Made by a program: the position numbers and the translations under genes. From Eledone cirrhosa (Eukaryota), in the NCBI GenBank assembly GCA_964016885.1, contig OZ024745.1:87172001-87236000 (forward strand): DNA of 64,000 bases, given 5' to 3'. The notes under the pieces were generated by a model, which did not search any database, had not been told where the DNA came from, and saw nothing but the letters and a program-made list of their open reading frames with translations. Positions 43,741-48,713 of this stretch are shown here, one piece after another (within the stretch, counting starts at the first letter, position 1; every line of letters starts with the position of its first letter).

Positions 43741-46462
43741 ATGAGCCGTCGTGGTCATACTTGGTCCTATTACCCACTCTACTAGCCTAAGTATTGAGTA
43801 CTTTGGTGCGTTATGTTCTATCCGGTTCTTTACCACATTTCCTTCGTTATATGTATATATGTATATATATGTATACCTATATATATATACGTATATATAT
43901 AAATGAAAAGTATAGAAATTGTTGTAACGAGAATCTAACAGTATTCCATAACATATATGCGACTATAGCGTCAAAATGGGAAAATAGTTAACATAAGATA
44001 TGGAAAAAATAATTCAGACCCAATTCTAAAGGAATCAGAATATAGATTTATCCAACAGAATTTAGAGAAATCTAGGGAAAAATCAATAGAGCCTTAACTC
44101 ATGATAAAACAAAGTCTAAAGTACTCAATCTTCAATTTGGGACAACTTCGAATGCTCTGTATAGTCTTGAAAAGACTATTTCACGAACATTTTCAGTGGA
44201 GATGGTCACGGTTGGATTTCGTTCCTCAGCAGAGCTCAACATATATGTATATATATATATATATATATATATATATATATATATATATATATATATATAT
44301 GTATATGTATATATGTATATGCATATATTTATATATATATATGTATATATATATATATATATATATATATATATGTATATGTAGATAAATCTACCAAGAG
44401 TTTACGGTAGTGTCCAATCCGTATGAAGAACTCAATGTAATCCGGATATCATGGAAAGAAGAGATGCAATGAAAAATCACTTTCGGTGAAAGATAAACGG
44501 AATACAGAGTCAAGATAAAATATTAAAATATAATTAAAATATATATATTAAAATATATATATGTATATATATATGTATATATATATATATATATATATAT
44601 ATATATATATATATATATATATATATATATATATATATATGTGTATATATGTGTATATATATATATATATATATATATATATATATATATATATGTATAT
44701 ATATATATATATATATATATATATATATGTATATATATATGTATATATATATATATATATATATATATATATATATATATATATATATATATGTGTATAT
44801 ATGTGTATATATATATATATATATATATATATATATATATGTATATATATATATATATATATATATATATGTATATATATATATATATATATATATATGT
44901 ATATATATATATATATATATATATATATATGTATATATATATATATATATATATATATATATATATATATATATATACAGTATATATATATTTATATATA
45001 TGTATATGTATGTGTATATATATGTGTATATATATGTATATGTATATACAGTATATATATATTTATATATATGTATATGTATGTGTATATATATGTATAT
45101 ATATATATGTATATGTATATATATATATGTATATGTTTATATATATATATGTATGTATATATATATGTATATATATATAGAGAGATATATATATGTATAT
45201 ATATATATATATATATATATATATATATATATATGTATGTATATATATATGTATATATATATAGAGAGATATATATATGTATATATATATATATATATAT
45301 ATATATATATATATATATATATATATATATATATATATATATATATATATATATATATATATATATATATGTGTGTGTGTGTATATATATATACTTGGGG
45401 AGGGTCATAATTGTGTAATTTTGCCAGAATTAATAACAGAACACACTCACCGCTTGGTTGGTTTTCGCTTCTGTGTCTTTTATATCGGTTAATAATTAAA
45501 TTTATTCGGTCCTCAATGTTGCCATTGACTGAACAACGGTCAAAAATACAAATACAATATAGACACAAACACATATATATAGTCTATGAAAGTCTTTCGT
45601 TGCACATATGCAACATCGTCAGAGGTGCTATTGTTTCCTCCCGTTGCATCGTATGTCTACGCCTTCTTTATTTAGTCTGTTTTTATATTTATTTATTTGT
45701 TTATTTTATTTGTTTGCGTGTGTGTATAGTGTTTTGTTTGATGTGTGTTCGAGTTTGGGTGATTGTATATTGGTTAATGTATTCTATCTTTACTATGTGT
45801 TTGTTGTTATTGTGCTTGTGTATGTATTTATTTATCTATTTATTTATTTACAAACAAGCATATATATATGAATATATATACATATATATATATGAATATA
45901 TATATATATAAATATATATACATGAATATACATATATATATATGTATATATATATATATGTATATATATATATATATATATGTATATATATATATATATG
46001 TATATATATATATATATATGTATATATATATATGTATGTATATATATATATATGTATATATATATATGTATGTATATATATATATATGTATATATATATA
46101 TATATATATATATGTATATATATATATATATATATATATATATATATATATATATATATATATATATATATAAACAAATAACGAAACGAAATTAAATTTC
46201 GTTTCGTTTGTAACTCACTTTTGTATGACTGATGCTTAAACAATTAAATTAAAAATGTACATCCACATATGTATACTGAAATACAAGTATGCATATGAAT
46301 ACACACACGTGTACATATGTAGATGTACCGAGTTTTTCACTGGACACTTTACTGTGAGTGTCCAGCTATTCTGTATGTAAACACACAGACAAACCGGTTT
46401 TTAGAGTCATACTGGTTTTCGAGGAAACACCTTTCCTCTATTCTCCAGAAAGCCAGACAAGG

Positions 46463-46507
46463 AATATTGGACTAGTTTCGATGTTGTTACATCTCATCAG
46501 CAATATT
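46463..46507 (-). ncRNA. Canonical minimal type I hammerhead; identical copies at 46929-46973 and 47395-47439 (-)
   Basis: aatattg CTGATGA gatgt-aaca-acatc GAAA ctag TC caatatt. GUC cleavage triplet; helix III is the palindrome ACTAGT. Confidence 0.93.
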
Positions 46508-47977
46508 TACCTATCTTCCGGCCTTTCTAGAGAATCGTAAAAGCACATATCGTTATATGCTTTTTCTATGAAAATTAGTAGTGGGCAGACTAATTTGCAT
46601 AGAGCGTGAGTACGTACCGGTTCAGCGGAGACGATAAAAACAAATAACGAAACGAAATTAAATTTCGTTTCGTTTGTAACTCACTTTTGTATGACTGATG
46701 CTTAAACAATTAAATTAAAAATGTACATCCACATATGTATACTGAAATACAAGTATGCATATGAATACACACACGTGTACATATGTAGGTGTACCGAGTT
46801 TTTCACTGGACATTTTACTGTGAGTGTCCAGCTATTCTGTATGTAAACACACAGACAAACCGGTTTTTAGAGTCATACTGGTTTTCGAGGAAACACCTTT
46901 CCTCTATTCTCCAGAAAGCCAGACAAGGAATATTGGACTAGTTTCGATGTTGTTACATCTCATCAGCAATATTTACCTATCTTCCGGCCTTTCTAGAGAA
47001 TCGTAAAAGCACATATCGTTATATGCTTTTTCTATGAAAATTAGTAGTGGGCAGACTAATTTGCATAGAGCGTGAGTACGTACCGGTTCAGCGGAGACGA
47101 TAAAAACAAATAACGAAACGAAATTAAATTTCGTTTCGTTTGTAACTCACTTTTGTATGACTGATGCTTAAACAATTAAATTAAAAATGTACATCCACAT
47201 ATGTATACTGAAATACAAGTATGCATATGAATACACACACGTGTACATATGTAGATGTACCGAGTTTTTCACTGGACACTTTACTGTGAGTGTCCAGCTA
47301 TTCTGTATGTAAACACACAGACAAACCGGTTTTTAGAGTCATACTGGTTTTCGAGGAAACACCTTTCCTCTATTCTTCAGAAAGCCAGACAAGGAATATT
47401 GGACTAGTTTCGATGTTGTTACATCTCATCAGCAATATTTACCTATCTTCCGGCCTTTCTAGAGAATCGTAAAAGCACATATCGTTATATGCTTTTTCTA
47501 TGAAAATTAGTAGTGGGCAGACTGAGATGTAACAACATCGAAACTAGTCCAATATTCCTTGTCTGGCTTTCTGGAGAATAGAGGAAAGGTGTTTCCTCGA
47601 AAACCAGTATGACTCTAAAAACCGGTTTGTCTGTGTGTTTACATACAGAATAGCTGGACACTCACAGTAAAGTGTCCAGTGAAAAACTCGGTACATCTAC
47701 ATATGTACACGTGTGTATATTCATATGCATACTTGTATTTCAGTATACATATGTGGATGTACATTTTTAATTTAATTGTTTAAGCATCAGTCATACAAAA
47801 GTGAGTTACAAACGAAACGAAATTTAATTTCGTTTCGTTATTTGTTTTTATCGTCTCCGCTGAACCGGTACGTACTCACGCTCTATGCAAATTAGTCTGC
47901 CCACTACTAATTTTCATAGAAAAAGCATATAACGATATGTGCTTTTACGATTCTCTAGAAAGGCCGGAAGTTAGGTA

Positions 47978-48022
47978 AATATTGCTGATGAGATGTAACA
48001 ACATCGAAACTAGTCCAATATT
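47978..48022 (+). ncRNA. Canonical minimal type I hammerhead; identical copy at 48444-48488, variant at 50335-50379
   Basis: Same motif on the plus strand in the inverted arm. Confidence 0.93.
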
Positions 48023-48713
48023 CCTTGTCTGGCTTTCTGGAGAATAGAGGAAAGGTGTTTCCTCGAAAACCAGTATGACTCTAAAAACCGGTTTGTCTGT
48101 GTGTTTACATACAGAATAGCTGGACACTCACAGTAAAGTGTCCAGTGAAAAACTCGGTACATCTACATATGTACACGTGTGTGTATTCATATGCATACTT
48201 GTATTTCAGTATACATATGTGGATGTACATTTTTAATTTAATTGTTTAAGCATCAGTCATACAAAAGTGAGTTACAAACGAAACGAAATTTAATTTCGTT
48301 TCGTTATTTGTTTTTATCGTCTCCGCTGAACCGGTACGTACTCACGCTCTATGCAAATTAGTCTGCCCACTACTAATTTTCATAGAAAAAGCATATAACA
48401 ATATGTGCTTTTACGATTCTCTAGAAAGGCCGGAAGATAGGTAAATATTGCTGATGAGATGTAACAACATCGAAACTAGTCCAATATTCCTTGTCTGGCT
48501 TTCTGGAGAATAGAGGAAAGGTGTTTCCTCGAAAACCAGTATGACTCTAAAAACCGGTTTGTCTGTGTGTTTACATACAGAATAGCTGGACACTCACAGT
48601 AAAGTGTCCAGTGAAAAACTCGGTACATCTACATATGTACACGTGTGTGTATTCATATGCATACTTGTATTTCAGTATACATATGTGGATGTACATTTTT
48701 AATTTAATTGTTT

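Follow-up and report, generated by a model that had tools for sequence, protein, structure and literature searches.

The stretch of DNA analysed here, 64,000 nucleotides of the Eledone cirrhosa genome (assembly GCA_964016885.1, contig OZ024745.1, positions 87,172,001 to 87,236,000; hereafter the window), contains at 46172–48714 an array of a 466-bp unit that carries a hammerhead ribozyme motif. The array consists of two blocks of the unit placed back to back, meeting at 47523, and lies inside a (TA)n tract. Tandem Repeats Finder gives a period of 466 bp, with 2.9 copies at 46168–47523, 2.6 copies at 47523–48714 and 99% matches. By BLAST of one unit, the copies are 99.1–100% identical to one another and the second block is the reverse complement of the first. 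The left arm (46172–47523, 1,352 bp, 2.90 units) has its ribozyme-sense strand on the minus strand, with the RNA 3′ end at the left; that of the right arm (47523–48714, 1,192 bp, 2.56 units) is the plus strand. The two arms meet at their 5′-truncated ends and share there the single junction base 47523. The (TA)n target adjoins the left arm at 45860–46171 and the right arm at 48715–50011, the latter doubling as the left flank of a second insertion. Since the longest stop-free frame in a concatemer of the unit has 60 codons, the unit is non-coding.

The array holds five intact type I hammerhead motifs. Three are on the minus strand (46463–46507, 46929–46973 and 47395–47439) and two on the plus strand (47978–48022 and 48444–48488, with predicted cleavage between 48015 and 48016 and between 48481 and 48482, respectively). 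A sixth, truncated motif begins at the inversion junction and lacks part of the hammerhead core. The helices measure 7 bp (I), 5 bp (II) and 2 bp (III, capped by a palindromic loop). The motif is confined to one polarity of the unit, and the ribozyme strands run outward from the junction. An earlier note on this DNA, made by reading the letters, had described a near-identical, non-coding 466-bp array with five intact hammerheads and a flip, all of which the analysis confirms. Its phrase ‘on both strands’ is true of the genomic strands, because the array is inverted, but not of the unit.

Could such motifs arise by chance? Across the genome the exact motif is matched 3,125 times and its reversed control never, and the ribozyme-sense unit folds with z = −10.7 relative to shuffles. 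We conclude that the motifs are not chance. A looser pattern has 40,333 matches, from several related families, against 6 for its reversed control. The Rfam scan at gathering thresholds returned no match in the window. Among 16 motifs chosen across families the core is invariant, while both sides have changed in 7 of 14 pairs; the covariation test gave 0 of 500 shuffles for the paired cells, in a sample of related sequences that represents few independent events. The base at the cleavage site, among distinct motifs, is C in 34, A in 19, T in 15 and G in 1. In the predicted, as yet unproven, fold of the whole unit, 4 of 151 pairs are compensatory within the family. The compensatory changes in helices I and II across families support the view that the ribozyme is under selection. 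The earlier note had reached that view from a single sister copy, which by itself is weak evidence.

The short helix III places the unit's hammerhead, as far as sequence can tell, in the metazoan weak-helix-III type I form, and self-cleavage is predicted. Hammerheads of this form with a palindromic loop are reported to cleave poorly alone and efficiently as dimers (PMC4209133; PMC7229834). A dimer requirement is likewise predicted here, because helix III has only 2 bp, and in a modelled co-fold of two copies helix III is lengthened between the copies. The hammerheads of newt satellite 2, of the axolotl retrozymes and of minimal Penelope-like elements (PLEs) resemble that of the unit in their short helix III with palindromic loop and are reported to be efficient only as dimers (PMC7229834; PMC4209133). 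In sequence, newt satellite 2 and the axolotl retrozymes are unrelated to the unit as far as the Rfam scan showed.

If the array is inverted, is the inversion peculiar to it? We examined further loci taken from three lists: the best BLAST hits, the first motif matches on contig C1 and the first end-junction matches on C1. The outer ends of the arms fall at two fixed positions of the unit, a long end just past a 13-bp hairpin and a short end about 65–74 nt earlier. In the present array the outer end of the left arm, 46172 (minus strand), is at the long (‘A’) site; that of the right arm, 48714 (plus strand), is at the short (‘B’) site, which in the RNA precedes the long one by 65–70 nt. The tail, that is, the stretch between both fixed ends (46172–46237, minus strand), is consequently found on the outer end of the left arm only, and the hairpin with its 13-bp stem occupies 46180–46208 within it. 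Among the 92 clusters of the first set, 44 are two-armed with both ends fixed, 24 of them long–short and 20 short–long; none is long–long or short–short. As L115 and L116 are one duplicated locus, these represent 43 independent cases. The remainder of the set comprises seven two-armed clusters with one non-standard end, one compound cluster, and others that are one-armed or cut by the limits of the fetched sequence. At four loci that span two fetches, long is again paired with short. Apparent long–long ends at L160 and L198 were rejected as fetch-edge artefacts, and L126, a compound of two insertions, was excluded.

The replication set comprised 60 of the 1,790 end-junction matches (the first ones on C1), chosen for their long end. 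In 39 of these a second arm ends short and in none does it end long; three are edge-cut, two have another end, and 16 were scored as one-armed, several of which show a very short second arm in the flank. Combining the sets, all 82 independent two-armed insertions with both ends classed have one long and one short end. The arms always point outward, no converging pair being present among the insertions examined. The inversion is thus the standard insertion product of the family and its most informative feature, rather than an oddity of one array.

An assembly artefact is an unlikely source of the array or its inversion, because the two-armed layout recurs at more than 80 loci with differing junctions. 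Contigs from four sequencing runs were compared with the right arm and with the junction; none of those listed spans the junction, which proves nothing either way but leaves this locus with no reads of its own in its support. In run X4 a single contig of 495 bases covers one whole unit, as expected from a tandem array and from a circle alike.

Where the arms of an insertion meet, 0–6 bases are shared in 54 of 103 cases, and short inserts are frequent. Target duplications measure 12–16 nt at four sites that are not microsatellites (L045, L110, L151 and L270) and about 30 nt in imperfect (TA)n. The median arm length is 1.2–1.3 units; of 166 arms, 104 are longer than one unit and 48 longer than two, and the longest arrays reach about 30 head-to-tail units, without coding sequence. 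The copy-number search suggested in the earlier note gave, besides the 3,125 exact motifs, 1,790 exact long-end/(TA)n junctions in the genome (control, 0). This is a lower bound on insertions, so that the family consists of at least 1,790 dispersed copies, with target duplications longer than 4 bp.

What kind of element is this? The tandem unit, a few hundred bp in length, is non-coding and carries a type I hammerhead in three and in two consecutive units. Its fold covaries around an invariant core, its cleavage base is, with one exception among distinct motifs, not G, its copies are dispersed and flanked by duplications, and its monomer is predicted to be highly self-paired. By every criterion testable from sequence, the family appears to be a metazoan non-LTR (long terminal repeat) retrozyme. 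The proposal of a recently active element of this kind is therefore supported. A plant-type LTR retrozyme is ruled out by the type I topology, the lack of an LTR pair and the duplications longer than 4 bp. A unit of 466 nt had been thought unusually large; it is not, since retrozyme units of 51–972 bp, linked to PLE terminal repeats, are reported by Li, Clavereau and Pollet (bioRxiv 10.64898/2026.07.22.740005), and of 150–450 bp by Cervera and de la Pena (2020; PMC7229834). Retrozyme circles have been demonstrated in that literature by northern blot, and Cervera and de la Pena proposed that a PLE enzyme makes tandem cDNA from the circle. Those circles were seen as RNA, whereas the present family is known from DNA sequence alone. 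No RNA data set was listed as containing the unit, which speaks neither for nor against its expression.

How does the layout compare with that of PLEs? PLE insertions comprise partial tandems and an inverted 5′-truncated copy, often with a 30–40 bp tail at one end, in (TA)n targets (PMC8557442). The PLE protein cuts and extends both target strands, two internal start sites of the reverse transcriptase (RT) delimit the tail, and a dimer is predicted (PMC11167929). Like these endonuclease-containing (EN+) PLEs, the unit forms 5′-truncated partial tandems with an inverted copy at the 5′ end and a one-sided tail; it shares with them the (TA)n or AT-rich targets, the two tail-delimiting internal RT start sites and the hammerhead upstream of the tail (PMC8557442; PMC11167929). 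The layout expected of a PLE-mobilised element, with tandem and inverted 5′-truncated arms, a one-sided tail and an AT-rich target, is thus present. The unit differs from EN+ PLEs in having no reading frame and in its tail of about 65–74 nt, as against 30–40. Moreover, Frangieh et al. (PMC11167929) found that in vitro the strands did not differ in start site; in the present family both sites are used in each insertion, one time apiece. Non-autonomous Chlamys PLEs such as MRC1, also among the closest known systems, differ in that they share 3′ sequence with coding partners and that their clade is described as lacking canonical hammerheads (PMC8557442).

The window itself is rich in PLEs. A young two-armed PLE lies at 28167–31430, long end left and short end right; its 877-codon stop-free frame on the plus strand (28267–30900) has an RT, a zinc-finger-like motif and, at the C-terminus, GIY-YIG, and its terminal repeats carry a different hammerhead-like motif, at 28400 and 31172. 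The copy of this PLE at L120 has an open frame of 891 codons, 99.5% identical to that in the window. The intact protein encoded by these two copies is a candidate enzyme for work in vitro. The coding family of 28167–31430 and a relative end in (TA)n, with long and short ends of their own 50–62 nt apart, and pair long with short in five of the five two-armed cases read. Because the coding PLEs obey the paired-end rule, we assign it, from these sequences, to the PLE machinery of this genome. The end rule, the layout and the target together support as likely the mobilisation by PLEs that the earlier note had suggested.

We consider it probable that the array is a two-armed insertion into (TA)n by a PLE-like RT, which took a predicted 466-nt RNA circle as its template and was primed from both strands of the target. 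The RNA steps, namely transcription, cleavage, circularisation and editing, are deduced from the DNA. The array would be transcribed on the ribozyme strand, by read-through or from an internal promoter for which a conserved octamer is a candidate. Neighbouring hammerheads would associate by way of the palindromic loop III and excise monomers, to be closed by a ligase, and some of these RNAs may be edited from A to I. A PLE protein, perhaps a dimer, would bind the tail and nick both strands of an AT-rich target 12–30 nt apart. Reverse transcription would begin internally, at the long and the short site on either side of the tail hairpin, each serving one strand. Each enzyme would then go round the RNA circle a variable number of times, and the two cDNAs would be joined at their 5′-truncated ends through microhomology or short fill-in. 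Long arrays were probably remodelled later by duplication and conversion. Of the components of this scheme, PLE-type twin priming is the one we hold to be very likely; that the template was a monomer circle we regard as the likelier case.

The layout also bears on the expression of the array. The earlier note had expected transcription from either flank to give cleavable multimers. As the arms diverge, however, read-through from a flank would be antisense in the first arm that it meets and ribozyme-sense in the second, so that the expectation would hold for the second arm alone, where fold-back could block cleavage.

What, then, points to a monomer circle? In this array two alleles are present in each unit that covers their position, in both arms alike, while the remaining differences are single. 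The unit-114 allele occurs nine times in the genome, six of them here (all six positions, in both arms) and three in older subfamilies, each time as a single unit. An allele private within the sample likewise occupies all covering units of both arms at 7 of the 59 two-armed loci of the first set. Changes fixed within a locus, read on the ribozyme strand, are A>G in 27 cases against T>C in 7 over both sets, as opposed to 43 against 65 for singletons (Fisher p 6e-5). A first pass of the fixed changes had given 25 against 8, and with more neighbours the first set gives 17 against 2. Counting by the sign of each locus, 16 loci favour A>G and 5 do not (p 0.013), and without the two clustered loci the changes stand at 16 against 7. 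None of the 27 locus-fixed A>G changes has a 5′ G neighbour, whereas 9 of the 43 singletons do. ADAR disfavours a 5′ G, and the absence of that neighbour is as would be expected of ADAR editing. At L120 a cluster of 8–10 A>G changes, confined to 130 nt upstream of the hammerhead, is identical in three consecutive units, and the 35 bases of this haplotype that were tested match nowhere else in the genome. Were a linear multimer edited at random, its units would not carry the same changes in this manner, so the cluster favours a circle.

Nor does the cleavage site leave a trace in the DNA. Of 206 inner arm ends, 4 fall no more than 5 nt from the predicted site (4.9 expected), and about 644 crossings of unit positions 297–300 contain no indel. 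The absence of both a pile-up of arm ends and indels disfavours template jumping between cut linear monomers. Taken together, the alleles common to both arms, the strand bias of A>G changes with its repetition at L120, and the seamless cleavage site lead us to favour one circular monomer as the probable template.

Several observations weigh against this reading. The replication set of 60 loci, taken alone, gives 10 A>G against 5 T>C (p 0.13), and changes fixed in both arms stand at 14 against 6. The A>G changes at L120 are restricted to one arm. A similar cluster at L176 was rejected as a private edit, since it is present in 70 units at seven loci; it shows that edits can be inherited, yet the locus no longer serves as a test of a single event. 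One end is non-standard in seven two-armed clusters of the first set and two of the second. Partly shared variants occur at 12 of 59 two-armed loci, at four of them across arms, counts that overlapping fetches in some cases inflate, and L041, L039, L127 and L129 show variant patterns of period 2 to period 6. These periodic and partly shared variants need multimeric templates or later recombination of DNA; a single monomer circle is insufficient. The anole PLE used uncleaved RNA, its ribozyme being unneeded for insertion (PMC11167929), and in vitro 8 of 9 predicted Xenopus retrozyme dimers failed to cleave (bioRxiv 10.64898/2026.07.22.740005). Finally, tblastn of seven PLE fragments of the window against L031–L140 and L239–L268 found no PLE frame in its normal place on the unit, and local alignment with three PLE terminal repeats of the window showed no clear similarity (the best alignment, in an AT-rich stretch, scores 39 against a shuffled maximum of 36).

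Might the template have been a multimer? The same PLE machinery and twin priming could have copied a linear, wholly or partly uncleaved multimer, or a circle of two or three units, the homogeneity of the arms then coming from homogeneous sources and later conversion. This would account for the period-2, -3 and -6 patterns and for the variants shared in part across arms. The seamless cleavage sites fit an uncut multimer equally well, helix III is weak, and the anole PLE does insert unprocessed RNA (PMC11167929). Edits of a multimer should vary from unit to unit, however, yet L120 repeats the same private cluster in each. The assembly contains no source array for the allele of the present array, although such a source could be absent from this haplotype. 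On balance we think a multimer template unlikely. At L041 (2038–6733) the left arm alternates two unit types and the right arm seems to cycle three, a pattern that dimer and trimer templates from one source array could give.

Alternatively, about one unit per arm might have been inserted from a monomer by the PLE enzyme, and the tandem copies have arisen later by unequal crossover and conversion between the inverted arms. The median arm of merely 1.2–1.3 units, the repeated blocks of variants in long arrays and the local amplification suggested by Li et al. (bioRxiv 10.64898/2026.07.22.740005) speak for this. But arms longer than one unit (104 of 166) or two (48) are common, and they include loci free of any difference, L032 and L033; alleles fixed in both arms, moreover, demand that conversion be complete while other variants stay single. 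We regard this course of events as quite improbable. Least probable by far is that the unit is the terminal repeat of an unfound coding PLE, left as truncated debris, or a DNA-level satellite or fold-back with an incidental hammerhead: the search for a parent was limited, PLE terminal repeats do carry such hammerheads, and opposite-strand hammerheads 100–700 bp apart have been ascribed to truncated PLEs (PMC4209133), but arrays of up to about 30 head-to-tail units without coding sequence, several subfamilies each spread as pure unit arrays, the compensatory changes in helices I and II and strand-biased A>G changes that point to an RNA step all oppose it, and the satellite form is largely refuted.

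The relation of the unit to a coding PLE deserves a separate word. The 466-bp element contains no RT plus GIY-YIG frame, and the unit is accordingly not an autonomous PLE. Nor did the variant-hammerhead pattern reveal a coding parent in the 30 of 229 matches examined; the search for a parent covered a sample of PLEs, short of the whole genome. Of the Xenopus families, 24 of 57 are linked to a PLE terminal repeat (bioRxiv 10.64898/2026.07.22.740005), while none was found for this family among the PLEs sampled. The earlier note had proposed to look for a linked PLE frame. None is attached to the unit in the normal place among the loci screened, but the unit is joined directly to a 5′-truncated coding PLE or to a PLE 3′ end at L065 (2050–4123), L109 (3157–7000) and L191 (271–3290), making mixed two-armed structures; L117 is ambiguous. 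The joins may reflect switching of the template, or else a deletion between elements that were neighbours within one (TA)n. As pointers to a partner they were rejected, since two different PLE families are involved.

Returning to twin priming on a monomer circle, we can take the proposal one tentative step further. A complex of two PLE enzymes, its subunits committed to the long and the short start, may roll round the same ribozyme-made circle, and ADAR edits of that circle may be heritable and able to found subfamilies; we put this at somewhat below an even chance. If true, a viroid-like element whose relatives in the genome number in the tens of thousands would have its heritable evolution driven by RNA editing.

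Retrozymes and their proposed copying by PLEs are known; a two-armed form whose ends are strictly paired, and editing scars that recur from unit to unit, were not found in the literature consulted. Metazoan retrozymes are described as head-to-tail (PMC7229834; bioRxiv 10.64898/2026.07.22.740005), in contrast to the diverging pair of arms seen here, of which one has the long and the other the short fixed end, and the available parts of the same two papers do not describe for them the editing scars repeated in each unit. We found no description of two-armed or of cephalopod retrozymes in a literature from which subscription journals were mostly missing and whose supplements may show such insertions. 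That PLE enzymes copy such circles has been a proposal since 2020, for which the available text of PMC7229834 and bioRxiv 10.64898/2026.07.22.740005 gives no direct evidence. The present family leaves readable footprints of copying, in its two start sites used once each, its repeated private changes and its scarless cleavage site, and it suggests a simple explanation for the tail and the inverted copies of Penelope elements, both long unaccounted for. Rolling-circle target-primed reverse transcription could be studied in vitro with this family, since its template is small and defined (466 nt, with known start sites) and the same genome holds young, intact PLE proteins.

What of the nearby sister copy? 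At 50012–50596 lies a second two-armed insertion, of a 469-bp type, with 0.44 unit (long end left) followed by 0.78 unit inverted (short end right) and a single intact hammerhead at 50335–50379 on the plus strand. It is 89% identical to the unit of the array and 99% identical to the other 39 of 40 matches listed. The earlier note took this sequence, at 50014–50598, for a diverged sister with its hammerhead intact. The hammerhead is indeed intact; the copy itself is not old and decayed but appears from these identities to be a member of a second young subfamily.

An octamer lies at 47885–47892 (plus strand), 100 nt upstream of the hammerhead core, and recurs at 48351 and 50242 on the plus strand and at 46593 and 47059 on the minus strand. 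Of 611 family motifs, 515 have it at this distance of 100 nt from the core; in a distant sister family it lies 80–88 nt upstream. Newt satellite 2 has an internal promoter of the small nuclear RNA type (cited in PMC2220036); in the unit, the conserved octamer is a candidate promoter element. A very young 468-bp subfamily (L176 and L269–L276; 70 units at seven loci, nearly invariant within and between loci) is marked by three A>G changes close together, through which the octamer is lost. It has nonetheless spread to seven loci.

One copy of the distant sister family is found at 59700–60190, with about 60% identity over the unit and a score far above shuffles. The order of its parts is again octamer, then hammerhead (at 59888, loop III being the same palindrome), then tail hairpin and (TA)n. 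Most of the first 100 of the 40,333 loose matches outside one long array belong to this family, whose units measure 422–511 bp. In the variant-hammerhead listing on contig C1, many single variants in helix II of its hammerhead change A to G within a UAG triplet or take the form of a paired AA>GG, and so resemble editing. Singletons on the ribozyme strand of the 466-bp family lean towards T>C over A>G (65 against 43) and G>A over C>T (97 against 67), as wobble errors of reverse transcription might give.

Elsewhere in the window, PLE fragments or terminal repeats of at least four families occur at 31560–34320, 35446–36970, 18763–20400, 22000–23730, 52419–54254, 62359–63257 and 45393–45850. The last of these sits just to the left of the array and has a hammerhead-like motif of its own at 45622 (minus strand). 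The interval 51065–52431 holds a long (TA)n tract, set between PLE-like sequences and bounded by an inverted repeat of about 125 bp, and similar fold-backs are present at 57060–57890 and 17360–17640. Two copies of a unit of about 300 bp with a hammerhead-like core (60491 and 60790) lie at 60310–60940, possibly another retrozyme family. Finally, the window contains a stop-free frame at 2458–2865, the second half of which we take to resemble an exon of an animal haem peroxidase.

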